From an uncultured Pseudomonadota bacterium (GTDB taxonomy: Bacteria > Babelota > Babeliae > Babelales > UBA12411), in NCBI GenBank assembly GCA_964415095.1, contig CAYPYR010000005.1:1-32654 (forward strand): a DNA stretch of 32,654 nt, read 5' to 3'. Below, piece after piece: positions 2,879 to 31,258 of this stretch. Each line of letters opens with the position of its first letter. The stretch's first letter is position 1. Made by a program: the position numbers and the translations under genes. The notes under the pieces are model-generated. The model ran no database searches. It worked only from the letters and a program-made list of their open reading frames with translations, and was not told where the DNA came from.

Positions 2879-2902
2879 ATGGACACATTTGGAGGTGGGC
2901 AC

Positions 2903-3547
2903 ATGATATCAACAGAATTACGTATTAAGGAATTATTACGTCGTCGTCGTTGGACGACTAAAGTACTCGCTGAAAAAACGGGACTTTCAGAGAGTTATTT
3001 AACGCATATAAAAAACGGTACACGTCGTTGGAATCAGGATTCATTAAAAAAGCTTGCTGATGCATTTGAAATGCCACCGTATGAACTTTTTACTCATAGA
3101 AAAGCTCAAAAAGAATCTAAAGAAAATGCGGTTACCCAAGAATTAGTTGGTAATTATACCTTGCAACAAGTTCCGGTAATTGATCATATTCCTAAGGATC
3201 CCTTCGGGCCAGAACGACGCAATGCACAATCTTATGTGCCGGTCTTTAATAGTGAAGATGAGGCGTTGTTTTGTTATAGAGTATCAGAAGATACTTATGC
3301 ACCCGTATTTGAGAAAAACGATTTATTAATTATTTCTCCCTATGGCTGGACACGATCTGGTGATATAGCTGCGGTTGAATGGATGGTCGGTACCGAAATG
3401 TGCCGCGATATCAAACGTATAACCTATATGGATGAATTTATCGTGCTTAACGCGGTAAACCATAAAGGAACACCAATAGCCTTGGTTCGGGGTAAGGATC
3501 ATTTCCAAGTTATTGGAAAAGTGGTCTATCGTTACCAGAATTTTTAA
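2903..3547 (+). CDS. XRE-family HTH regulator with C-terminal LexA/S24-peptidase-like domain (catalytic Ser apparently substituted), paralog 2
   Basis: Start MISTELRIKELL at 2903 is preceded by GGAGGTGGG (2891-2899). The HTH segment WTTKVLAEKTGLSESYLTHIKNG is nearly identical to paralog 1. The C-terminus is VSEDTYAPVFEKNDLLIISP...DIKRITYMDEFIVL...VIGKVVYRY. Confidence 0.8.
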   Translation: MISTELRIKELLRRRRWTTKVLAEKTGLSESYLTHIKNGTRRWNQDSLKKLADAFEMPPYELFTHRKAQKESKENAVTQELVGNYTLQQVPVIDHIPKDPFGPERRNAQSYVPVFNSEDEALFCYRVSEDTYAPVFEKNDLLIISPYGWTRSGDIAAVEWMVGTEMCRDIKRITYMDEFIVLNAVNHKGTPIALVRGKDHFQVIGKVVYRYQNF

Positions 3548-6539: not shown

Positions 6540-8189
6540 TTAATTGTTGTGAGGCATATCTCTTTTGTGCAGTGAATTGAGTATCGTGAGCATGCCAAAA
6601 CATACTGAAAACCCGACGAGTAATGATGCTATTACCATAACAGCGGCACCTTGTGTCGCTAAAAATCCGGCTACTAAAAAAGCACAAGCAGTGCCAATGA
6701 ATGCTGGCAGTGAATAAATCATCTGAGAGTGCACGTGATCTATATGATGAGCCCCAGCACTGGTAGATGACATATTAGTGGTATCAGAAATTGGTGAGAT
6801 ATGATCTCCAGCGATTGATCCACAGAGTGTTGCGCCAAGCACCGGAAGCAAGATGGTGGCATGATCCAACATAATTGGTGGGTTTGATCCAAGGATTGAG
6901 ACGACCATTGGTATTGCTATCGGAAACATAATTGCCGCGGTGCCCCACGAGGTACCAATTGCCAATGAAATGCCTGCTGAAAATATAAAAAGCATAAATG
7001 GTAAAAACTTAATGGAAGCAAATCCAAGTATTATATTAGCTAGATAAGATCCAGTATGAAGATCATTACGGAGAATATCACCGAGCGTCCAGGAGAGCAT
7101 TAATATCATGATTGCTGATAACATAATGGTAACACCTTCGGCAAAAATGCCGGGTAGCTCGCTCAACGTAAGTTTATTGCGCATGAGATAAAATATAATG
7201 CAGATGCATAATGTCATTATACCAGCAAGCATGAGGCTTTGATATGGATTAGCATGGCGAAATGCATCGAGTATCGAGAGTGATCCACCAAAAAGAAATG
7301 ATCCTCCCGTATATTGAATGCCAAAAAAAATGAATAGAAATAACGCAATAGTTGGCACAAAAAAATCTATCATCGATACTCGTTCTTTATTGCGAATATG
7401 AGCGCCACGGATTCTATAATGTCGCTCTTCTTTGCCGCCATAAAGATTCCCTGACTCAATAGCTATTTTTTCCTGATGAGCCATTGGCCCGAATGATATG
7501 CGTCGTACAACAATAAACCATGCAGTGCCTATAATAATAAATGAATAGAATAAAAAAGGAAAAATTCGGGTATACACTACAAATGGGTCGTCAAGAATCA
7601 ATGTTTGTGATGTTGCAATCCTAGAAACTCCGTTTTCACCAAGAAATCCAATAAGCGCTGCTGCCCAGCTTGATATTGGTGCTAAAATGGCAAGAGGGGA
7701 TGCCATAGAGTTTATGAGAAAAGCAAGTTTTATACGTGGAATCTTATATTGGTCAGTAAGGGGATGCATGACAGAACCAACCGTTAATGCACTAAAATAG
7801 TCATCAACGACGAGTGATGATGAGAGCAACAACGAAGCAATTTCTACCATAAAATTGTTCTTAAGGCGATTTTTTACAAAAACTCCATAAGCGTAAGTGC
7901 CACCGGAATGTCCAATGAGTGTAACAATCACCCCAAGCATACACAAGAAAAAGCAGATAAATGAATTTTTAGCGGTTACCAGTGTTGACCATGATCCATA
8001 GAGATTGATTTCTAAATTATCCCAAAAGTAATGTGCAGCAAGCATGAGAGCGCGATAAGGAGAAGATGGTATGACGATGAGCGCTGCGGTGAGAATGCCG
8101 CACGTGAGTGCTAAATGAACACGACGTGTTGCAAGGCCTAGAATAAAAACAATTATCGGGGGTAATAGAGCTAACCAATGGTCAGGCAT
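6540..8189 (-). CDS. NhaC-family Na+/H+ antiporter-like membrane transporter, copy 1
   Basis: 549-aa polytopic membrane protein. VVDDYFSALTVGSVMHPLTDQYKIPRIKLAFLINSMASPLAILAPISSW and the C-terminal GDHISPISDTT resemble NhaC-type antiporters as I remember them. Substrate is unknown. Confidence 0.75.
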   Translation of the reverse strand: MPDHWLALLPPIIVFILGLATRRVHLALTCGILTAALIVIPSSPYRALMLAAHYFWDNLEINLYGSWSTLVTAKNSFICFFLCMLGVIVTLIGHSGGTYAYGVFVKNRLKNNFMVEIASLLLSSSLVVDDYFSALTVGSVMHPLTDQYKIPRIKLAFLINSMASPLAILAPISSWAAALIGFLGENGVSRIATSQTLILDDPFVVYTRIFPFLFYSFIIIGTAWFIVVRRISFGPMAHQEKIAIESGNLYGGKEERHYRIRGAHIRNKERVSMIDFFVPTIALFLFIFFGIQYTGGSFLFGGSLSILDAFRHANPYQSLMLAGIMTLCICIIFYLMRNKLTLSELPGIFAEGVTIMLSAIMILMLSWTLGDILRNDLHTGSYLANIILGFASIKFLPFMLFIFSAGISLAIGTSWGTAAIMFPIAIPMVVSILGSNPPIMLDHATILLPVLGATLCGSIAGDHISPISDTTNMSSTSAGAHHIDHVHSQMIYSLPAFIGTACAFLVAGFLATQGAAVMVIASLLVGFSVCFGMLTILNSLHKRDMPHNN

Positions 8190-8338: not shown

Positions 8339-9970
8339 TTATGGAAGTTTTTTATTATTATTACATATTGTAAGTAATAATAAACTGATCAAGATACCAA
8401 TAAGATTTGATCCAACAACCATAATCAATATACCATAATTAGCTAAAAAGCCAGTGGCTAGAAATGCGCAACATGTTGCAAAGTAGATTGGTAATGCATA
8501 CGTGACTTGACCTTGTATAAGGTCGTTGTGACGTGCTCCGGTGCTCGTTGATGACATTATTGTTGTATCTGCGATTGGGGAGAGGTGATTACCTGCCACT
8601 GCCCCGGCAAGGACGGCGCCGAGTACGGGAAGAAGCATAAGCACATTATCAAGTGTTACTGGTGGATTCAGTCCTAAGGTTGATACAACCATTGGGATGG
8701 CGATGGAGAACATAAGTGCAGCAGCGCCCCACGATGTGCCAATTGCCATAGAAGTAATGGTTGAGAGAACAAAAAATATTACCGGGAGCAATGTGATTGA
8801 AGCAACGCTTTTCATGAGATTTGCTAAATATACGCCCGTCTTTAAATCTACGCGTAAAATATCGCCGAGTGTCCACGCAAGCATCAACATAATAATAGCC
8901 GGTAGCATCATCTGGATGCCTTCATAAATAATATAAGGTAATTGATGAGAGGTAATCTTGCTTCGTAACAGATAAAAAAGAATGGTGATTGTTAGGGTAA
9001 TGATGCCAGCAATTACTAAGCCCTGATAAGGGTTTGCCGATCGGAAAGCATTAATGATCGTATTCGCACCACCGAAAATCCAAGAATCACCCGTATATTG
9101 TATTGCACCAAGAATGCTACAAAATAAAGTGATAATTGGAATAAGAAAATCAATCAGAGAAGTATGAACTTGTGAGGGCAGAGTGTTTGCATCTGAGGAG
9201 GTTGCTGTCGTAGATTCTCCAAATAAGTTTGCGGTGGTTTGAGCAATGTGTTCATGATTGCCGATTAAGCCAAATGAAATGCGCTTAAGTACAATAAACC
9301 ATGTTGCACTAATCATAATAACCGAGTAAAAAATAAACGGTAAAATGCGTGAGTATACAATAAAGGGATCAGCAAGAATGATAGTTCCGGGTGTGTTAAT
9401 TATTGAAACACCATTTTCACCTAAGAAACCAATAATTGCGGCAACCCAGCTTGAAATGGGTGCTAAAATTACCAACGGTGCTGCCATTGCATTGACCAAA
9501 AAAGCAAGCTTGACGCGCGGGACATTAAAACGGTCGGTAAGCGGGCGCATGACTGAACCGCAAGTGAGTGTGCTAAAATAATCATCAACAAAGATCAGAG
9601 AAGAAAGTAGGAGTGTTGCAATTTCAGCAGAGCGTGTGTTCTTAAGTTTATTGCGCACAAATGAACCATAGGCATGTGCACCACCAGAATATTGAACTAG
9701 TAATACAATAATACCAAGCATGCATAAGAATAATGCAATAAAAGAGTTCTGCGATGTAGTTATGTGATGCCATGATGTATAGTTTGCAAGTTCAAGATTT
9801 TCCCAAAGATAACGAATTGCTAGTGTAAATCCAGCGAGAAGTGATCCTTTTGCGGCTATAAGAGAAGCAGTAACGATCCCACCAATGAGCGATAGCAAAA
9901 CGCGTTGTGTTAAAAAACCTAATGCAAGTACTATTAATGGTGGAATAACCACTAACCAATTATATGACAT
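8339..9970 (-). CDS. NhaC-family Na+/H+ antiporter-like membrane transporter, copy 2 (paralog)
   Basis: Colinear with copy 1 (FVDDYFSTLTCGSVMRPLTDRFNVPRVKLAFLVNAMAAPLVILAPISSW; GNHLSPIADTT). Start trimmed to MSYNWLVVIPP at 9970, because the track start at 10090 would overlap the end of dapF. Confidence 0.75.
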   Translation of the reverse strand: MSYNWLVVIPPLIVLALGFLTQRVLLSLIGGIVTASLIAAKGSLLAGFTLAIRYLWENLELANYTSWHHITTSQNSFIALFLCMLGIIVLLVQYSGGAHAYGSFVRNKLKNTRSAEIATLLLSSLIFVDDYFSTLTCGSVMRPLTDRFNVPRVKLAFLVNAMAAPLVILAPISSWVAAIIGFLGENGVSIINTPGTIILADPFIVYSRILPFIFYSVIMISATWFIVLKRISFGLIGNHEHIAQTTANLFGESTTATSSDANTLPSQVHTSLIDFLIPIITLFCSILGAIQYTGDSWIFGGANTIINAFRSANPYQGLVIAGIITLTITILFYLLRSKITSHQLPYIIYEGIQMMLPAIIMLMLAWTLGDILRVDLKTGVYLANLMKSVASITLLPVIFFVLSTITSMAIGTSWGAAALMFSIAIPMVVSTLGLNPPVTLDNVLMLLPVLGAVLAGAVAGNHLSPIADTTIMSSTSTGARHNDLIQGQVTYALPIYFATCCAFLATGFLANYGILIMVVGSNLIGILISLLLLTICNNNKKLP

Positions 9971-10010
9971 ATAATCCCTGAGTAATAACATGTTAATATT
10001 ATTTGAATTT

Positions 10011-10826
10011 TTATATATTGAGTATATCGAGACTTGCTGAAAATACAAAATATGCAGAAGCTTCTTGCCAAATTGTCCCACCATCATCAATCCATGAGGT
10101 TAGTATACCACCGGGCATAGTAATAAAAATTTTCTGATCTACGTCGATAGTTTCAGTGTGATAGAGCATAGCCATAGCAGCCGCTGCGCCCGAACTGCAT
10201 GCTTGCGTTATACCACAACCGCGCTCATAGACGATCAGCTCATAAGTATTATCTTTTGATTGCTGAGTTAAAGACCCTAAGTTTACGCCGTTTGGAAAGT
10301 ATTGATGATGAGTCAAAACTTTTCCGTAATGTTCAAGTGTAGTGCGTGAAAGTGGTTCATTGATAACAAAATGTGGATTTCCCATATCGACATAAAAACC
10401 ATTTATTGAGCGATCATCAATAACAATAGTTTTAGATACTATCTCAAATGGCTTGCCGATATTTAATGTAATATATTTTTCGTGCACGATTCCGGTAATA
10501 GTGCGTGTGTCCATGCGCACTATAATTTTGTTATCAAAATTATGATATGTTCTAAGATGCAGCAGGGCGCATCGCAGCCCGTTTAAACAAATTTGACCTG
10601 CTGAACCATCAGCATTAAAAACTTGAATTCGCGGTGTTTGATCATGATCTTTGGTAAGCACTAAAATGCCGTCAGCGCCAATACCACGATGTCGATTACA
10701 CCAGGAGTGAATAATAGATTGTGAGTTTGGGACAGAAATAATATGAGCTATTACTCCCGGATTCTCAATACCATCGACGAGTATAAAATCATTTTCAAGT
10801 GAGTGATATTTAAAAAATGGAATCAT
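10011..10826 (-). CDS. dapF: Diaminopimelate epimerase
   Basis: N-terminal FKYHSLENDFILVD, then NADGSAGQICLNGLRC and ERGCGITQACSSGAAA (the two catalytic Cys regions), and GNPHFV. Confidence 0.85.
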   Translation of the reverse strand: MIPFFKYHSLENDFILVDGIENPGVIAHIISVPNSQSIIHSWCNRHRGIGADGILVLTKDHDQTPRIQVFNADGSAGQICLNGLRCALLHLRTYHNFDNKIIVRMDTRTITGIVHEKYITLNIGKPFEIVSKTIVIDDRSINGFYVDMGNPHFVINEPLSRTTLEHYGKVLTHHQYFPNGVNLGSLTQQSKDNTYELIVYERGCGITQACSSGAAAAMAMLYHTETIDVDQKIFITMPGGILTSWIDDGGTIWQEASAYFVFSASLDILNI

Positions 10827-13369: not shown

Positions 13370-13480
13370 AAGAATACATCCTTAAAATTTTTGTGTTGAG
13401 GAGATACTTCCCTCGCTAGAGCTTTATTTAAATAATAAAGTATACAGCATCTATTGATACGTCAAACATAATGAGTTTTA

Positions 13481-13508
13481 TTGACAGTTATTGCATGAAT
13501 GCTACGAT
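13481..13508 (+). promoter_or_regulatory. Candidate sigma70-type promoter for the 13570 gene
   Basis: TTGACA (13481-13486), a 16-nt spacer containing TG, then TACGAT (13503-13508). Confidence 0.45.
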
Positions 13509-13569
13509 GTTTGAAGGTGATTTTAAGGGGAGCCAATATTTTAAATGTTACTATTTTCAAGGGATGTTC

Positions 13570-14739
13570 ATGAAAAATCATATAAAATTTATACAAGTAT
13601 TACTCTACAGTCTTGTTTGGTCATGTGGAATAGTGGCTGAAGGTGAGATTGTTTGCAAAGACCAAAAAACTTTTGAGGTCATTCAAAACGAAACGAGTCT
13701 ATATAATTCCAATGGAAAACCAGCAGCTACACTTCTTTACGATGCAGTATATGATTCTACTAATCAGATTATCTATTCAAAAAATCAAATTACTCAAAAG
13801 AGGTTTGAACAATTGCAATTGTCTTTCGAGCATGCTACGCAGCTTCAACAAAATATGATGTTGCGTGATAATAAAAGAGGCAAATCATATGAAAAGATAT
13901 TGAATGCTAGGATCGGATTTGGAGAATATGCGGTTGATACCACAAATAAGATATGCATTGAAGATATAAAATCCTATGATAAAGCAATTAAGTTGGCCTT
14001 AGAGCAAGAGATACAAGAAAAAAGAGAATTTTGTGCAAAGATATGTTTGGCTATGCTTAGTAATAAATCTAATGTTGAAAAGTCAGTAAAATTGTTTAAA
14101 AAATTACTCTTATGTGAATTAAAAGATCACTGGAGGTATTGTTTTGATGAAAACGAATATAAAGAAACATTGATGTTGAAAGATGGCTCAAAACTTTCTA
14201 AAGGTTTAGAACAAATTCGAACCAGTTTAAATCAATTTTTAAGCCAAAGTAAAGACAAATCATTTGAAATCAATGCTCAGCATCTCGCACTCATTGAGAA
14301 AAATTTCAACATTCTTTTAAGCGAACAACAAGCGTTTTTCAAGTTTTTACAGGAACATGATATTCTAAATAGCACCACTCATCTTGAAACTGGAGCTTTT
14401 AACCGGGTTCTTTTTGGAATAGTATCTATTTGTGGTGCTTTTATATGTTTGAATTTTGTTCTGTCAAAGGCAGAGTTTCCGGATCCTATAATAGGTCTTT
14501 TTTTTAAATCATTAGCAGTATGTATTTCTCTCTCAGTCGCTGCAATAGGATGGCATGCAATAGTTGAACCTCCTGCGAGTCTATCTGATGATATTGCTAA
14601 ACGCGAAAAAGAATTGCAAAGACAATACAACAATATTGATGAAAATAAAGTTAAAGAAATTATATCCCAAATTTTCCAAAATCCAGCATGGTTAGACGTA
14701 ATTAATCAAGAACAGATAGAAGCTGTTTTCAGTTACTAA
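13570..14739 (+). CDS. Hypothetical signal-peptide protein with a helical (probably coiled-coil) body and a C-terminal double transmembrane hairpin
   Basis: Start chosen at MKNHIKFIQVLLYSLVWSCGIVAEG (AAGGGA RBS 5 nt upstream; ATGs at 13471 and 13564 also exist). The middle is Lys/Glu/Gln-rich. Two hydrophobic segments, VLFGIVSICGAFICLNFVL and IIGLFFKSLAVCISLSVAAIGW, are separated by only 8 residues. No known family recognised. Confidence 0.62.
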   Translation: MKNHIKFIQVLLYSLVWSCGIVAEGEIVCKDQKTFEVIQNETSLYNSNGKPAATLLYDAVYDSTNQIIYSKNQITQKRFEQLQLSFEHATQLQQNMMLRDNKRGKSYEKILNARIGFGEYAVDTTNKICIEDIKSYDKAIKLALEQEIQEKREFCAKICLAMLSNKSNVEKSVKLFKKLLLCELKDHWRYCFDENEYKETLMLKDGSKLSKGLEQIRTSLNQFLSQSKDKSFEINAQHLALIEKNFNILLSEQQAFFKFLQEHDILNSTTHLETGAFNRVLFGIVSICGAFICLNFVLSKAEFPDPIIGLFFKSLAVCISLSVAAIGWHAIVEPPASLSDDIAKREKELQRQYNNIDENKVKEIISQIFQNPAWLDVINQEQIEAVFSY

Positions 14740-16107: not shown

Positions 16108-16130
16108 AACAGATCTCATACAATCTTTTT

Positions 16131-16184
16131 ACGAGCTGCCTCTGCAAAAGCAGCTCGTGCTTCTTTTCTTGTTTTTCCTTTTTT
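16131..16184 (+). terminator. Intrinsic terminator after the permease gene
   Basis: 9-bp stem acgagctgc / gcagctcgt, a 10-nt loop, then a long T-rich tract (cttcttttcttgtttttcctttttt). Confidence 0.6.
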
Positions 16185-16186
16185 AG

Positions 16187-16216
16187 TTGACCGATGATCG
16201 TTAAAAATGATATACA
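16187..16216 (+). promoter_or_regulatory. Candidate strong promoter for the Cys-rich OMP gene
   Basis: TTGACC (16187-16192), an 18-nt spacer ending in TGa, then TATACA (16211-16216). Confidence 0.5.
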
Positions 16217-16288
16217 GGTTATGTTTTATTAAAAAATTATAAACAGCAACTTGTACTTGAAAATTAAACATCCTCAAAAGGAAACGTT

Positions 16289-17812
16289 ATGATGCAAAGC
16301 CTGTGCCAAATACAATGGAATCGTGCACTAATCAGTCTCTTTTTGATCCTAACGGTTATCGTGCAACAAGGTATGCCACAGCCACCGATCAATAACTATG
16401 TTGATCCTGCAATGACTTATTATGCACGTGGTGCAAATCCTTTTTATCCAGAAACGAATGAATACTTTTTTCAATTTATGCTCTCACCATTTTATCAACA
16501 TGCTGCCGGTGCAAAACCAGGAAAAAATGAACAGAATCAATGTTGTCCAACACCGCCACCAGTAGCTGGGCCTGATGAAACAAGTTGTTGTGCACAAAAG
16601 TGTATTCCAAGTTGTAAAGGTCAAAAAGTTCCCGAAGGTGATCGTCTTGGTCGTTGGAACATGATTGGTCTATTGCAGGGCACTGGTGCTGCACCATGCT
16701 GCCAAATCGTGCAAGATTGTTTACCAAATCTGTATGCAGCACAGCAAGAAATTCTGCCGCTTGGGTTTCTTACTGAAGAATTTAAGGATGGTTTTCAACA
16801 ATTTGGCTATTTCTCAGTACCGGTTAATTATCAAAAAGTAGGCCTGCGAGCAATGGCTCGTTTTTATTTAGGGTATGGTTTTGGTATTACCGCACGAAGT
16901 GGTGTTGCACGCTATCGCCAAGTACCATGTTTTATCGATAAGACCTGTGATGCAAAAGATCAGGCGTATTGTGATTGTGATGGCACCCAAAAAGTTTTTA
17001 CCTGTGACCAAATCAGAGGTGTTGAAAAAGCGCTTATGAGTGCTGAACGTCGTTGTGATATAGCACGTGATATTTGCCTGAATATTGCACCATATAGTCA
17101 TACAGGCCCTGAAGATACTCATGCGCAGATCGATTGGGGCGGTACCTTTCAATATCATAATGATGAGAATGAATTAATGGTTACTGTGTTGCCTTATGCT
17201 GCAGCAGGTATCTGGTTTCCAACTGGTTCAAAACAAAACCCTGATATTGCATTTTCGCTACCACTCGGCGGCAATGGATTTTATGGTGGAACGCTTGATG
17301 CAGGGCTCAACTTTTCCTTCCCGGGAACAGTCGTGTTTGGCATGGGTGCGGCATTGACGATTTATGATAGTAAAATACAGCCATGCCAACGTGTACCAAC
17401 TAACTGTAATCAATCCGGTATTTATCCCTGGAAAACCACTATAAAGCGAAAACCAGGATTAGTCTGGAATGCTCATTTGGACCTTGCTGCCTATAACTTT
17501 ATACCTAAGTTAAGCTTTTTCTTTAATTACATCTATACCAAGCATGAACATGATAATATAGAGCTTGAAAATAACAATTGCCTGCGATTTCCTGACGAAT
17601 ATGGTAATTGTTATACCAATTGCTGCTTCCCAATGTATCACCCTGAAAAGTTGGAAGCCGAATCAGCCTGGGATAGTCAAGTGCTAAATATTGCCTTTGA
17701 GTACGAAGTTACGAAAAAGCTTTTTATAGGGGCTGCTGCACAGGTGCCCATAACCGGAGCACGTGTTTATAAAACCAGTACTATTATAGGTACAATTCAG
17801 TTTAATTTTTGA
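16289..17812 (+). CDS. Putative cysteine-rich beta-barrel outer membrane protein
   Basis: AAGGAAA RBS. The N-terminal h-region is ALISLFLILTVIV. The C-terminus ...TSTIIGTIQFNF ends in Phe with alternating hydrophobics, a beta-signal-like pattern. The body has Gly/aromatic-rich strand-like segments. I count about 23 Cys, including four CC doublets. Confidence 0.68.
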   Translation: MMQSLCQIQWNRALISLFLILTVIVQQGMPQPPINNYVDPAMTYYARGANPFYPETNEYFFQFMLSPFYQHAAGAKPGKNEQNQCCPTPPPVAGPDETSCCAQKCIPSCKGQKVPEGDRLGRWNMIGLLQGTGAAPCCQIVQDCLPNLYAAQQEILPLGFLTEEFKDGFQQFGYFSVPVNYQKVGLRAMARFYLGYGFGITARSGVARYRQVPCFIDKTCDAKDQAYCDCDGTQKVFTCDQIRGVEKALMSAERRCDIARDICLNIAPYSHTGPEDTHAQIDWGGTFQYHNDENELMVTVLPYAAAGIWFPTGSKQNPDIAFSLPLGGNGFYGGTLDAGLNFSFPGTVVFGMGAALTIYDSKIQPCQRVPTNCNQSGIYPWKTTIKRKPGLVWNAHLDLAAYNFIPKLSFFFNYIYTKHEHDNIELENNNCLRFPDEYGNCYTNCCFPMYHPEKLEAESAWDSQVLNIAFEYEVTKKLFIGAAAQVPITGARVYKTSTIIGTIQFNF

Positions 17813-17837
17813 CAAAGTTGCCTATACCACCTATACT
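17809..17837 (+). promoter_or_regulatory. Near-consensus sigma70 promoter for rpsU-rbfA-kdsD-pilD
   Basis: TTGACA (17809-17814, overlapping the OMP stop codon), an exact 17-nt spacer, then TATACT (17832-17837). Confidence 0.6.
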
Positions 17838-17904
17838 AAGACTCTCTTTAATTAGAGCAATGTTCTAAGCAGTTATGACTCCTTTAAGGTGGTGAATACA
17901 AAAA

Positions 17905-18114
17905 ATGGCTAAAACTTTTAATATCGAGATCTCCGTAGATGGAAATCTTGAAAAATCACTCAAACAGCTTAAAAAGAAAGTTGAGCGTGAAGGTGTTGTT
18001 CGCGATATGAAGCGACAAGTATACTTTGAACCGCCAACGCAAAAAAGACGCAAACGCATGATGCGCGCGATTAAAAATAATTTTCTTAAGCTTGCCACCA
18101 ATGAATCACAATAG
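17905..18114 (+). CDS. rpsU: 30S ribosomal protein S21
   Basis: LEKSLKQLKKKVEREGVVRDMKRQVYFEPPTQKRRKRMMRAIKN is typical of S21. AAGGTGGTG lies upstream. Confidence 0.9.
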   Translation: MAKTFNIEISVDGNLEKSLKQLKKKVEREGVVRDMKRQVYFEPPTQKRRKRMMRAIKNNFLKLATNESQ

Positions 18115-20287: not shown

Positions 20288-20423
20288 ATTAATCATCTAG
20301 ATTCTATCTACTCAATTGGGCACAAAATATACGAAAAAAGCAAACTATTTTGATCATGTCATTTTGTTTGTTAGCGTAATCAGATATAAATAGTATTCCA
20401 ATCATTTTATGAAGGAGAAGTAT

Positions 20424-21128
20424 ATGAAAAAATTAGTACTTATAGGTTTATTTGCATCTTGTGCTTTTATTGCACCGCATGCAAATCTTGATGCACGAGC
20501 AAAAAAAAGCAAAAAAATGGTGCAGTGCCCGTTAAAAACTAGTGAATTAAAGACAGCTATGCGCAAACTTTGGGAAGATCATGTTACCTACACCAGAAAC
20601 TATATCATCAGTGCGCTTGCTGAACTTGGTGATGCTGATGCTGTTGCGCAACGACTGATGAGAAATCAAGATGAGATTGGCAATGCTATAAAATCTTATT
20701 ATGGTACCGATGCAGGAGATAAACTAGCAAAATTATTGCGCGAGCACATACAACAAGCCGCAGAGGTTGTAAAAGCAGCTAAAGCAGGAAATAAAAAAAA
20801 CCTTGATGCAAAACAGGCGATATGGCATGCAAATGCTGATGAAATAGCCACATTTTTAAGTAATGCGAATCCAAACTGGAATAAAGCAGAGTTAGCTAAA
20901 ATGTTACATGCGCATTTAGATTTAACTACCGATGAAGTAGTTGGCCGGCTTAAAAAAAATTGGGAAGCGGATATTGCTGCCTATGATAAAGGACATATGC
21001 ACATGCTTCAATTTAGTGATATGCTCATTGATGGAATAGCCGCTCAATTTCCTGATAAGTTTGAATGCAAATGTGGCATGAAAAAAGCTCGCAGCATGAA
21101 AAAGCAGCAAAAAGATACTATGCAATAA
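20424..21128 (+). CDS. Secreted helical protein of unknown function (His-rich pairs, basic tail)
   Basis: GAAGGAG RBS at 20411-20417. The signal peptide is MKKLVLIGLFASCAFIAPHANLDA. The body is two similar helical halves (LWEDHVTYTRNYIIS...; HAHLDLTTDEVVGRL...GHMHMLQF). No family named with confidence. Confidence 0.7.
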   Translation: MKKLVLIGLFASCAFIAPHANLDARAKKSKKMVQCPLKTSELKTAMRKLWEDHVTYTRNYIISALAELGDADAVAQRLMRNQDEIGNAIKSYYGTDAGDKLAKLLREHIQQAAEVVKAAKAGNKKNLDAKQAIWHANADEIATFLSNANPNWNKAELAKMLHAHLDLTTDEVVGRLKKNWEADIAAYDKGHMHMLQFSDMLIDGIAAQFPDKFECKCGMKKARSMKKQQKDTMQ

Positions 21129-26736: not shown

Positions 26737-27771
26737 TTAAAATTGCTCGAGAAACTTTAATCTTCCGCTGTGTAGCAGGCGAATGTCATTAATAGCATAT
26801 TTAATCATCGCAAGGCGCGTCAGCCCAAAACCGAAGGCAAATCCTGAATATTCTTCAGGATTTATTCCCGCTGCTTGCAGGACATTTGGATGAATAAGTC
26901 CACCAGGAAATACTTCAATCCATGTTGATTTTTTACATACGGAACATCCCGCAGTGCAAAATGGACATTGAATATCGATTTCAACGCCAGGTTCAACAAA
27001 TGGGAAAAAGCCAGGGCGTATTCTTATTTCTAAATTGTCTCGTTTAAAAAAGGCGTGCAAAAACTTTTTAGCCGTTGCAAAAAGATGAGCAAGCGTAACA
27101 TGCTTATCAATTAAAAATCCTTCGCACTGCATAAACATAAAATCGTGTGTTGCATCAGTTGCTTCATGACGGAAGCAACGTCCAGGTGCAATGGCGGCAA
27201 TTGGAAGCGGTTTTTCGCGCATGATATGCGACTGCACCGTTGATGTGTGTGTACGAAGGAGTAAATCGGGGCGATTCATCCAAAACGTATCATACATATC
27301 GCGCGCGGGATGATGCTCGGGAATGTTGAGCGCCGTAAAATTGTTGTAATCATTTTCGATTTCTGGCCCATCAACTACTTGATAGCCCATAGAAATAAAA
27401 ATATTCTCGATTTCTTGTACGATATGAGTATACGGGTGAAGATGACCTGTGGCATCTTCTTTCATATAAGCGGTTACATCAAAATTCATTTTTTTTGAAT
27501 TTTGTTGAGTAGCAGCTTCTTTGATCAGTGTTGCTTCTTTTTCATCAATGAGCAAGGTTGCAATATCTCGCAGTTGATTGATCAGTGCGCCAACTGTTTT
27601 TCTCTCATCACCTGAAAACGATTTTAATGTGGTGAAAAATTCGGTAATGCTTCCTTTTTTTCCTAAAAATTGTACTCGTAATTGTTTAAGCTCTGCAAGA
27701 CTGGTAACCAGCTCTAATGCGTTGTGGAGCTCTTGTTGCGTAATGGAAATTTTAGTTTCTATGGTGGACAT
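26737..27771 (-). CDS. pheS: Phenylalanine--tRNA ligase alpha subunit
   Basis: LRVQFLGKKGSIT, HPARDMYDTFW, LLRTHTSTVQ, PGRCFRHEATDATH, FHQ-like MQCEG and GFAFGFGLTRLAMIKY are class II motifs 1-3. Start trimmed to MSTIET (27771), which has an AAAGGAA RBS. Confidence 0.93.
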   Translation of the reverse strand: MSTIETKISITQQELHNALELVTSLAELKQLRVQFLGKKGSITEFFTTLKSFSGDERKTVGALINQLRDIATLLIDEKEATLIKEAATQQNSKKMNFDVTAYMKEDATGHLHPYTHIVQEIENIFISMGYQVVDGPEIENDYNNFTALNIPEHHPARDMYDTFWMNRPDLLLRTHTSTVQSHIMREKPLPIAAIAPGRCFRHEATDATHDFMFMQCEGFLIDKHVTLAHLFATAKKFLHAFFKRDNLEIRIRPGFFPFVEPGVEIDIQCPFCTAGCSVCKKSTWIEVFPGGLIHPNVLQAAGINPEEYSGFAFGFGLTRLAMIKYAINDIRLLHSGRLKFLEQF

Positions 27772-27827
27772 ATGTTCCTTTTTGCACAATCTGGCAAATA
27801 TATTGGAGCTATTTTAGCATCTTTTTA

Positions 27828-27928: not shown

Positions 27929-28004
27929 GCCGAGATAGCTCAGTCGGTAGAGCAACAGACTGAAAATCTGTGTGTCGCCGGTTCGATTCCGGCTCTCGGC
28001 ACCA
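27929..28004 (+). tRNA. tRNA-Phe (anticodon GAA), CCA encoded
   Basis: Folded by hand over 76 nt. Acceptor gccgaga/tctcggc, D-arm gctc-agtcggta-gagc, anticodon stem acaga/tctgt with loop ctGAAaa, variable loop gtgtc, T-arm gccgg-ttcgatt-ccggc, discriminator A, then CCA. Confidence 0.93.
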
Positions 28005-29884: not shown

Positions 29885-31258
29885 GTGAAAATATCAATTA
29901 TTACGGTTTTTCCGGAACTGTATACTGCATTTCTTAATACTAGTCTCGTAGCTCGTGCTAAAGATGCGGGCCTTGTTTCATTTTCAGTGACTGCATTTTC
30001 ATCAGTATGTGATCCCAAAGAGCGTATTGATGAAGCGACGTGTGGACCAAGTGCTGGCATGATTTTAAAGCCAGTAGTGGTAGAGCGAGCAATTGCAGCA
30101 GTGGAAGCAGAACATGGTCCTGGGTTTCGCATATTCTTTTCGCCGCAGGGCAAGAAACTTTCTCAACGATTATTACATGAGTTATATGATGAATTACACC
30201 ATGTACATAATCAATTTGACGAATCTCAAAGTAGCAATGCTGATATAAATGCGCATATTATTTTAGTATGTGCTCGTTATGAAGGTATTGATGCACGGGT
30301 TGAAGAAGAATGCGCAGACTTACTGCTCTCAATTGGCGATTATGTGCTGATGGGAGGAGACCTTGCAGCACAAGTATTTTTAGAAAGTTATATGCGCCTT
30401 ATTCCGGAAGTTATTGGTCGCGTGCAATCAGTAGAAGAAGATTCTTTTAGCGGTCCTTTTCTCGATTACCCTGAATATGGATTGCCGGTTGAATGGCATG
30501 AGAAAAAAGTTCCCGACATTATTCTTTCGGGAAATCATGGTGCTATAAAACAATATCGTACATCGCGTGCTGCACGCAGAACAATCTTGCAACGATTTGA
30601 TTGGTTTCGATCATCGGGTATGACCAAAGATGAGATGCTGAGTGCTAAAGAGCATATTCCTGCTCACTACGTGGTGCTCATGCATGATCAGGTATATGTG
30701 AAAGAAGATGAGGTTGGTGTAACATCAATCACCTCTATTGATTTGCATGATATTGCACGTTCAAGCGCAACCTACGGGGTAAGTGGTTTTTTTGCCGTAT
30801 CATCGCTCAAAGACCAACATATGATCATGCAGACATTTATTGATTTTTGGAGCTCGCCGCGGGGGAAAAAATATAACCCGTCACGTTATCGAGCAATGGC
30901 ACTTTTAAAGCCGGCCTTTTCTTTTGACGAAGTGCGCGAGTGTATTCGAGCAATTGAAGGGAAAGATCCCTTGATTGTTGCTACCTCAGCCAAAACGTCA
31001 GAGCAGGCTCCACTGATTGATTATGCTGCCCAAGGAACTGTTTGGAAGCATGATAGACCTGTTTTATTGGTATTTGGTACCGGACGAGGTCTTTCGGATG
31101 CCTTGCTTGCTCAATGTGATTATTTGTTAGCCCCTGTTTTAGGTATGACTGATTATAATCATCTGTCGGTACGCAGTGCCGTTGCCATTATTTTAGACCG
31201 TTGGCTAGGTCTTAACCAATCCTTACCTGGATTATTGCTTGAAAATAGGCGAAAATAA
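29885..31258 (+). CDS. trmD: tRNA (guanine37-N1)-methyltransferase TrmD fused to a C-terminal second SPOUT-like domain
   Basis: GTG start 2 nt after the KH-gene stop. The TrmD motifs are ITVFPELY, CARYEGIDARV, SIGDYVLMGGDLAA and ILSGNHGAIKQYR (aa 1 to about 250). A further 200 aa or so follow (HYVVLMHDQVY..GVTSITSIDLHDIARSSATYGV..LLVFGTGRGLS..DYNHLSVRSAVAIILDR). Confidence 0.88.
   Translation: MKISIITVFPELYTAFLNTSLVARAKDAGLVSFSVTAFSSVCDPKERIDEATCGPSAGMILKPVVVERAIAAVEAEHGPGFRIFFSPQGKKLSQRLLHELYDELHHVHNQFDESQSSNADINAHIILVCARYEGIDARVEEECADLLLSIGDYVLMGGDLAAQVFLESYMRLIPEVIGRVQSVEEDSFSGPFLDYPEYGLPVEWHEKKVPDIILSGNHGAIKQYRTSRAARRTILQRFDWFRSSGMTKDEMLSAKEHIPAHYVVLMHDQVYVKEDEVGVTSITSIDLHDIARSSATYGVSGFFAVSSLKDQHMIMQTFIDFWSSPRGKKYNPSRYRAMALLKPAFSFDEVRECIRAIEGKDPLIVATSAKTSEQAPLIDYAAQGTVWKHDRPVLLVFGTGRGLSDALLAQCDYLLAPVLGMTDYNHLSVRSAVAIILDRWLGLNQSLPGLLLENRRK

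Follow-up and report, generated by a model that had tools for sequence, protein, structure and literature searches.

A cysteine-rich predicted outer-membrane barrel of Dependentiae with probable remote kinship to FapF and COG4313 channels

The Dependentiae (TM6), described here as obligate intracellular parasites of protists, form a widespread phylum known almost solely from metagenomes, and their cell envelope is poorly understood. On a 32,654-nucleotide contig of an uncultured member of this group (GenBank assembly GCA_964415095.1, contig CAYPYR010000005.1; the whole stretch is termed the window), a coding sequence extends on the + strand from an ATG at 16289 to a stop codon at 17812. Its 507-aa product is unusually rich in cysteine, and the locus thereby raises a double question: to which class of proteins does this product belong, and what could its cysteines be doing at the surface of such a parasite? 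A sequence-only reading of the window had seen in it a beta-barrel outer-membrane protein, possibly of a new family and possibly the major redox-crosslinked component of the envelope.

The composition reported in that reading was borne out when the sequence was checked. The 507 residues include 23 cysteines (4.5%), at positions 6, 85, 86, 100, 101, 105, 109, 137, 138, 144, 214, 220, 228, 230, 239, 256, 263, 366, 373, 431, 441, 445 and 446, and the motifs found comprise the four CC doublets QCCP, SCCA, PCCQ and NCCF together with CDCD and CCPTPPPVAGPDETSCCAQKCIPSC. Segments of the glycine/aromatic type (GYGFGITARSG and LPLGGNGFYGGTLDAGLNFSFPG) and the C-terminal IIGTIQFNF are likewise present. 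This cysteine content is the highest of all open frames of at least 150 aa in the window, the others ranging from 0 to 3.9%.

Fold and family of the barrel protein

An AlphaFold2 model of the window protein, built with a 29-sequence alignment, had a predicted local distance difference test score (pLDDT) of 82 and a predicted template modelling score (pTM) of 0.80. The model of P0009, an orthologue with a single cysteine, reached a pLDDT of 88 and a pTM of 0.84. Both contain 12 long strands and, since the single-cysteine orthologue folds likewise, the modelled barrel is independent of the cysteines. When the window protein was compared with the PDB using Foldseek, FapF chains came first (E 2e-11, target-normalised TM-score 0.72), followed by the COG4313 channel Pput2725 (E 3e-9, target-normalised TM-score 0.66), with autotransporters, FadL and porins far weaker. 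The same two proteins headed the matches of P0009 (FapF E 3e-19, Pput2725 E 6e-18, both with TM-scores of 0.72-0.74), the next being FadL (E 1.5e-11, TM-score 0.30). Assignment to the FadL/Toluene_X proteins (FadL being 14-stranded) is contradicted by Foldseek TM-scores of 0.25-0.31 and by the lack of a Pfam match, and a viral structure library returned generic barrel matches only. According to both models, their Foldseek matches and a C-terminus of the type recognised by the beta-barrel assembly machinery (BAM), the window protein is a beta-barrel outer-membrane protein, as the sequence-only reading had supposed. The features of the coding sequence and its product are as follows.

16289..17812, + strand: coding sequence of the predicted 12-stranded beta-barrel outer-membrane protein (open reading frame, composition, model, Foldseek)
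16289..16372, + strand: signal-peptide-like N-terminus, aa 1-28, hydrophobic core 13-25 (hydropathy; model helix 5-22, low confidence 19-28)
16373..16465, + strand: conserved N-terminal segment, aa 29-59, motif PP.NN..DP, candidate lumen plug (conservation, model)
16508..16825, + strand: predicted loop L1, aa 74-179, 9 cysteines (model secondary structure)
16922..17092, + strand: predicted loop L2, aa 212-268, 7 cysteines including CDCD, two helices at 239-261 (model)
17219..17284, + strand: predicted loop L3, aa 311-332, with PTG (311-313) and LPLGGNG (324-330) (column frequencies, hhalign register)
17546..17668, + strand: predicted loop L5, aa 420-460, 4 cysteines (431, 441, 445, 446) (model)
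17780..17809, + strand: C-terminal strand ending in IIGTIQFNF, resembling a BAM beta-signal (terminal residue Phe in 136/175 and Tyr in 16/175 family members)

The strands of the model are:
strand 1, aa 60-73
strand 2, aa 180-193
strand 3, aa 198-211
strand 4, aa 269-284
strand 5, aa 296-310
strand 6, aa 333-343
strand 7, aa 349-368
strand 8, aa 382-405
strand 9, aa 408-419
strand 10, aa 461-475
strand 11, aa 478-491
strand 12, aa 496-506

The modelled barrel has short turns on one side and the long loops L1 (74-179), L2 (212-268), L3 (311-332), L4 (369-381) and L5 (420-460) on the other. The long loops are predicted to face outward, because this is the usual rule for outer-membrane proteins. 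At the N-terminus, Arg12 precedes the hydrophobic stretch ISLFLILTVIV (mean Kyte-Doolittle value 3.1) and there is no lipobox. The sole -3/-1 cleavage candidate of the window protein sits within the hydrophobic stretch, and close homologues display A|QPP-type cleavage sites at the aligned position. By the same hydropathy heuristic a signal-like hydrophobic N-terminal segment was found in 143 of 164 family members, which agrees with the signal-like N-terminus that had been proposed. The proposed BAM-type C-terminus holds equally well, a terminal Phe or Tyr being present in 152 of 175 relatives as it is in the window protein. Both general marks of a BAM-dependent barrel, a signal peptide and a C-terminal aromatic beta-signal, are thus found, the signal peptide by a heuristic call.

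Between the signal-like segment and strand 1 lies the conserved stretch of aa 29-59, in which D39 is kept in 155 and P40 in 119 of 168 members. It has no regular secondary structure in the model, where aa 31-50 have a pLDDT of 81-90 and aa 51-60 one of 69. Pput2725 is a monomeric 12-stranded barrel whose lumen is occluded by an N-terminal segment (PMC4493636), and by analogy with Pput2725 and FapF (PMC4493636, PMC5557850) the aa 29-59 segment probably occupies the barrel lumen as a plug. Pput2725 also carries in its loop L3 a conserved cluster including Pro119-Thr120-Gly121 (PMC4493636), and PTG is conserved in the equivalent loop of both COG4313 proteins and FapF (PMC4493636, PMC5557850). The window protein reads FPTGSK...LPLGGNG in L3, and across the 168 members the three PTG positions at 311-313 are P in 112, T in 89 and G in 125. 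The end of the loop follows the consensus LP[T/F]GN[D/N]G, with G327 in 162/168 and N328 in 152/168. The COG4313 hallmark of a conserved Pro-Thr-Gly in L3 followed by a conserved Asn is therefore found in this family.

The family itself is large and almost without annotation. A word-indexed protein search returned 31 relatives, none of them with a Pfam domain and the few named ones called hypothetical protein. An exhaustive profile search retrieved 982 representatives (clusters at 50% identity) at E ≤ 1e-3, of which 299 reached E ≤ 1e-30, with family lengths of ~430-690 aa. Scans of the window protein gave chance-level matches only, both against Pfam at E ≤ 10 (Antiholin, E 0.096) and against NCBIfam (QH_gamma, E 0.066). 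Pfam scans of 29 and 90 members detected faint matches to OMP_b-brl (up to 6/90, best E 0.002-0.003) and to Phenol_MetA_deg/PF13557 (2/90, best E 0.018, and none among the 29 or, at E ≤ 10, for the window protein). Chlam_OMP (PF01308) and Legionella_OMP (PF05150) were absent from every Pfam scan, at E ≤ 10 for the window protein and at E ≤ 1 for 118 relatives, in agreement with the earlier statement that no similarity to chlamydial MOMP or Legionella OmpS was apparent. PDB sequence searches with 29- and 150-member profiles gave nothing except Nop58 at E 0.7. A second word-indexed search, with an alignment of distant members as query, recovered known proteins only and no Pfam-annotated relative. 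A description of the barrel protein was not found in the Dependentiae literature, where genome papers mention 'surface antigens of unknown function'.

For a more sensitive comparison, the FapF sequence was taken from Table 1 of PMC5137466 and relatives of it, verified to carry PF13557, were aligned (32 sequences). The 150-member family alignment matched this FapF/PF13557 alignment in hhalign over 146 columns with a probability of 49%, a P-value of 1.7e-4 and a score of 40.8, whose weight is limited by the low diversity of the FapF alignment. The two motifs fell in register, PTG on PTG and LP(T/F)GN on LPTGNG, which are the two PTG motifs of FapF. In 22 controls with reversed or block-shuffled alignments the scores were 16.9-29.5, and against a single FapF sequence the alignment was off-register (probability 1%). 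A fold match, shared motifs and an hhalign score above the controls are moderate evidence, and they make it probable that the Dependentiae family branched off deeply within the PF13557 superfamily, as a remote offshoot of the COG4313/FapF barrels. The suggestion of a new outer-membrane protein family stands in so far as no Pfam, NCBIfam or PDB sequence match was found and named relatives are hypothetical; it does not stand in so far as fold, motif and profile-profile evidence place the family within this known class, which would extend well beyond proteobacteria. The family thereby gains a fold assignment and recognisable features, namely a candidate plug, a PTG cluster and cysteine-rich loops.

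The likeness to the known members of the class has clear bounds. FapF (PDB 5O65/5O67; PF13557) is the best structural match of both models (TM-score 0.72-0.74), and it too has a 12-stranded barrel after an N-terminal segment, with two PTG-type motifs in the beta5-beta6 loop (PMC5557850). In contrast to FapF, the Dependentiae gene lies outside any fap operon, and neither model has a helix between signal peptide and strand 1, so that no periplasmic coiled coil is predicted. The mature protein has ~480 residues as against ~320 in the FapF barrel domain, its loops L1, L2 and L5 are greatly enlarged and cysteine-rich, and there is no threshold-level sequence match. The COG4313 channels (Pput2725, PDB 4RL8; SphA; TcpY), also named 'MetA-pathway of phenol degradation' proteins, are the second-best structural match (TM-score 0.66-0.74) and share the conserved PTG in L3 (PMC4493636). 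They have mature lengths of 270-320 aa and short loops (PMC4493636), whereas the mature window protein has ~479 aa, the ~160-210 extra residues lying nearly all within loops. The Dependentiae protein also differs from them in its phylum, theirs being proteobacteria, and in lacking a catabolic operon context.

Promoter and conserved genome position

The barrel gene was described earlier as a terminator-flanked unit with its own promoter and a good ribosome-binding site. The elements found around it are listed here.

16130..16184, + strand: intrinsic-terminator-like hairpin, 10-bp stem (16130-16159) with a T-rich tail (RNA fold -16.2 kcal/mol)
16187..16216, + strand: putative promoter, -35 TTGACC (16187-16192), 18-nt spacer, extended -10 TGaTATACA (16208-16216) (sequence)
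16276..16284, + strand: putative ribosome-binding site AAAAGGAAA, 6 nt from the ATG (sequence; AAAAGG/AAAGG kept in the three closest relatives)
17809..17837, + strand: rpsU promoter-like site TTGACA-17-TATACT, overlapping the stop codon of the barrel gene (11/12 consensus matches)

The promoter pattern at 16187-16216 is the single match in the whole window; a generic consensus promoter scan demanded T as the last -10 base, and the TATACA promoter was outside its reach. In the three closest relatives (L022-L024), whose proteins are ~50% identical to the window protein, TTGAC, TG and TATA.A are invariant while other intergenic DNA has diverged, and 13 of the 24 related loci have TTGACN-15-TGNTATA(A/T)A ahead of their orthologue. 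The claim of an own promoter is well founded on these grounds, as is that of the ribosome-binding site, and the near-consensus extended -10 promoter suggests strong expression of the barrel gene. Flanking by terminators holds on one side only. The upstream hairpin is significant (z = -2.84 against 200 shuffles) and, with its T-tract, is a convincing candidate for the terminator of the upstream amino-acid permease gene, a generic terminator consensus scan having missed it because its loop has 10 nt. Downstream, no significant terminator hairpin was detected in 17805-17905 by RNA folding (z = -0.8), and the rpsU promoter-like site is found there instead. Since this site lies over the stop codon, the barrel gene and rpsU (17905-18114) are apparently transcribed as two units, and no terminator separates them.

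A scan using an alignment of 10 closer sequences as query located relatives of the barrel protein in 21 genomes; wherever a taxonomic name is given, it is that of a metagenome-assembled genome of Candidatus Babeliales or Dependentiae. Together with the contigs of the three closest relatives these gave the 24 related loci, in most of which the order amino-acid permease, barrel gene, rpsU, rbfA, (kpsF-like), pilD is kept. Each related locus has one copy of the barrel gene, tandem paralogues being absent from all of them, and the gene matches the rest of the window in GC as well as in GC at third codon positions, or GC3 (window GC 38%). A foreign origin is ruled out by these typical GC and GC3 values. 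We conclude from the conserved order, the single copy and the typical composition that the barrel gene is a native, core and positionally conserved gene of Dependentiae. This is, then, a newly described single-copy barrel with its own conserved promoter and one conserved position in 24 loci, for which neither Pfam nor NCBIfam has a model, and it would make an obvious target for antibodies, cell sorting and proteomics of the mostly uncultured Dependentiae.

It is to be noted that in four Dependentiae loci (L009, L012, L015 and L017) rpsU lies 4-6 kb downstream of the barrel gene as compared with the usual ~100-250 bp. The intervening DNA is an insertion of something other than a second barrel gene copy.

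Loop cysteines and possible functions

Twenty-two cysteines belong to the mature window protein, and their distribution is strongly biased. In the clade of the window protein 96% of the mature cysteines lie in the predicted outward loops, for the most part L1, L2 and L5, compared with 75% in other cysteine-rich members and 21% in cysteine-poor ones, these loops making up ~50% of the residues in each group. An insert rich in Pro and Cys (aa 76-118), peculiar to the clade, lies in L1 together with the conserved motif GDRLGRWNM (117-125), and L2 is the loop densest in cysteine across the family (4.2%). The 175 members counted have between 0 and 34 cysteines each (median 8), 39 of them at least 15; the positional orthologues in the 21 genomes have 1-22.

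A check of cysteine conservation gave a divided answer. Family-wide the cysteines are not conserved, with no cysteine column reaching 90% in either family alignment and with orthologues that carry 0-1 cysteine. Within the four-member clade of the window protein they are, 12 of the 22 mature cysteines being shared by the whole clade and 14 by three or more of its sequences, whereas just 31% of the other loop residues are identical throughout the clade. The residues kept in all four include Cys 85, 86, 100, 101, 105, 109 and 144 of L1; those at 137/138, 256, 373 and 441-446 are lineage-specific, and some L2 positions such as 220 are more widely shared in the family. Cysteine-rich forms occur in separate branches: one large group of clusters is cysteine-rich (medians 14-17), another large group is cysteine-poor (medians 2.5-5), and the window's four-member clade (20-24 cysteines) clusters with members that have just 2-12. 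Since this cysteine-rich clade stands among cysteine-poor members and its cysteine-bearing L1 insert is missing from most of the family, cysteine richness seems to have been gained separately in different branches. Orthologues with 0-34 cysteines make up a natural series for comparing the effects of surface disulfides in a bacterium whose life is divided between host cytoplasm and the environment.

Two cysteine columns, near window aa 267 (end of L2) and aa 457 (end of L5), co-occur in the family with a phi of 0.77 (both in 24 sequences, one in 12). They may correspond to a disulfide joining L2 to L5 in the large cysteine-rich clade, a point on which we do not rely given that relatedness and loop misalignment are uncontrolled in this figure. 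The window protein itself has no cysteine at either position.

We regard it as moderately probable that the gene encodes a phylum-conserved COG4313/FapF-type channel of Babeliales whose outward loops are stapled by disulfides and which is expressed from its own strong promoter. The protein would be exported by means of its signal peptide, inserted by BAM and folded into a 12-stranded barrel of the COG4313/FapF type, with the ~30-residue N-terminal segment in the lumen and the PTG and LP(T/F)GN cluster in L3. It would most likely work as a gated or laterally opening outer-membrane channel, passage occurring when the plug moves or when a lateral gap opens close to the PTG cluster, and uptake is more likely than secretion. 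L1, L2 and L5, enlarged relative to the known relatives, hold nearly all 22 mature cysteines, and these would be oxidised in the periplasm before membrane insertion, which is plausible because a VKOR homologue occurs in Vermiphilus, a member of the Dependentiae (bioRxiv 10.64898/2026.03.05.709764). The loop cysteines, as placed by the model, most likely form disulfides, which would staple the surface loops into a rigid cap outside the host. As replication is intracellular, reduction of the exposed disulfides in the host cytoplasm after entry is conceivable.

Several points weigh against this interpretation. General porins are not found among the known plugged barrels of 12 strands. The count of 12 strands was read from the secondary-structure string and the structural matches, and the model is of low confidence in the cysteine-rich inserts, at 76-118 and 432-446, pLDDT falling below 50 in the clade-specific ones. 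No scanned sequence, whether the window protein or the 29 and 90 members, reached the gathering score of PF13557, and the hhalign probability is just 49%, with the C-terminal half alone aligned. The number of mature cysteines is even in just 57% of 168 members, from which it follows that unpaired cysteines are common, a poor fit to purely intramolecular pairing. Finally, the existence of some orthologues with 0-1 cysteine implies that the cysteines are dispensable for the core function. As a test for intramolecular pairing, the parity of cysteine counts was discarded as uninformative because of the 57% figure.

If the kinship to COG4313 were taken at its fullest, the barrel would work in the manner of the characterised SphA and TcpY and bring in hydrophobic or amphipathic compounds of the host, for instance lipids or sphingoid bases. 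These would pass laterally through an opening close to the conserved L2-L4 cluster, and the cysteines would be structural decoration alone. We hold this as a tentative possibility. The COG4313-like fold and the conserved PTG cluster (PMC4493636) speak for it, and so does the strong host dependence of the Dependentiae, which apparently lack complete metabolic pathways (PMC6561590). However, an outer membrane free of lipopolysaccharide (LPS) should let hydrophobic molecules pass, which removes the usual reason for such a channel (as we infer from PMC4493636 and PMC6561590), and the conserved neighbour is an amino-acid permease rather than a lipid-handling gene.

The model put forward by the sequence-only reading was different. 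Spelled out, it makes this protein the chief constituent of a chlamydia-like envelope in which intermolecular disulfides, reduced after host entry, would link its copies to one another or to other cysteine-rich envelope proteins and so give rigidity to an extracellular infectious particle. The comparison has a basis, the chlamydial MOMP/OmcA/OmcB complex also comprising a cysteine-rich outer-membrane barrel in an obligate intracellular bacterium with an extracellular stage, so that redox behaviour is plausible here as well. The 22 mature cysteines compare with 7-10 in chlamydial MOMP (PMC3561449), the odd mature counts of ~43% of members indicate that unpaired cysteines are common, and the promoter is strong and conserved. 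All four known outer-membrane tethering systems were missing from the Dependentiae genomes surveyed (bioRxiv 10.1101/2021.05.31.446380), and Babeliales have no LPS synthesis genes (PMC6561590, PMC4776705), which would call for another stabilisation of the envelope. Free Chromulinavorax particles, moreover, show a condensed nucleoid resembling that of a developmental cycle (PMC6561590). Nevertheless we consider this model unlikely. The cysteines are in the predicted outward loops and not towards the periplasm, no second cysteine-rich secreted protein was found in the window and no partner of the OmcA/OmcB kind came to light. With anything from 0 to 34 cysteines in orthologues that share the genome position, such a network cannot be a principle of the phylum as a whole. 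Unlike chlamydial MOMP, the Dependentiae barrel belongs to a different barrel class and has no sequence similarity to it. A further comparison is offered by PomS and PomT of the amoeba-associated intracellular bacterium Protochlamydia amoebophila, where this lineage-specific outer-membrane family takes the place of the usual major porin (PMC3561449). In contrast to the Dependentiae barrel, which is known from sequence and models, PomS has two cysteines only and was experimentally shown to be an anion-selective porin. A restricted form of the proposal, in which some Dependentiae evolved a chlamydia-like, redox-switchable, disulfide-crosslinked envelope on a scaffold unrelated to the chlamydial one, a COG4313/FapF-type barrel with enlarged cysteine-rich surface loops, is in our view quite unlikely. 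If true, the crosslinked envelope would compensate for the missing LPS genes and outer-membrane tethers of the phylum and could gate the channel between extracellular and intracellular stages.

Binding of Zn, Cu or Fe by the CC, CxC and Cx3C clusters of the loops, for metal capture or in a metal-stabilised surface domain, is very unlikely. The spacing CC-x13-CC-x3-C-x3-C and the CDCD motif do resemble metal-binding clusters, but matches to metal-binding families were confined to chance level (QH_gamma E 0.066; zf_Rg and zf-piccolo in 1/90 each), the extracytoplasmic location and the VKOR pathway of the phylum favour oxidation, and the cysteine positions turn over fast between close relatives. 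FapF-like export of an unfolded peptide or amyloid subunit is most improbable: although FapF is the best structural match and specifically shares the double PTG motif in the beta5-beta6 loop (PMC5557850), the window and the 24 loci have no adjoining fap-like genes, C39 peptidase or candidate substrate, the recognised neighbours are housekeeping or type IV pilus genes (permease, rpsU, rbfA, KpsF-like, pilD), and neither model predicts an N-terminal coiled coil beyond the signal peptide.

Other genes of the window

The remaining genes of the window include many for translation and RNA (rpsF, typA/bipA, pheS, tRNA-Phe, ffh, trmD, rplS, rpsU, rbfA), two for the cell wall (a Mur ligase and a DAP epimerase) and some for the surface or host interaction (an ankyrin protein, a pilin-like protein and a prepilin peptidase). 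Among the less conventional ones are the following.

2015-2809 and 2879-3547: neighbouring genes, each with a helix-turn-helix (HTH) domain and Peptidase_S24 (LexA/CI-like repressors)
6540-8189 and 8339-10090, - strand: tandem Na_H_antiporter (NhaC-type) paralogues
13471-14739: orphan open reading frame of 422 aa without a Pfam match, of the lowest GC in the window (31.8%)
20409-21128: protein of 239 aa that lacks a Pfam match and begins with a signal-peptide-like segment, encoded between the genes for the prepilin peptidase and an ankyrin-repeat protein
29885-31258: open reading frame of 457 aa in which TrmD (tRNA m1G methyltransferase, aa 23-237) is fused to Methyltrn_RNA_4 (aa 262-441)

The 422-aa orphan was considered as a paralogue of the barrel protein and rejected, its hhalign probability being 0.2%. 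A tandem pair of HTH and Peptidase_S24 genes is unusual in a reduced genome. Finally, tRNA-Phe (27929-28004) adjoins pheS (26737-27789, - strand), and as the listed start of the ffh open reading frame (GTG 27970) overlaps this tRNA gene, the true ffh start must lie further downstream.

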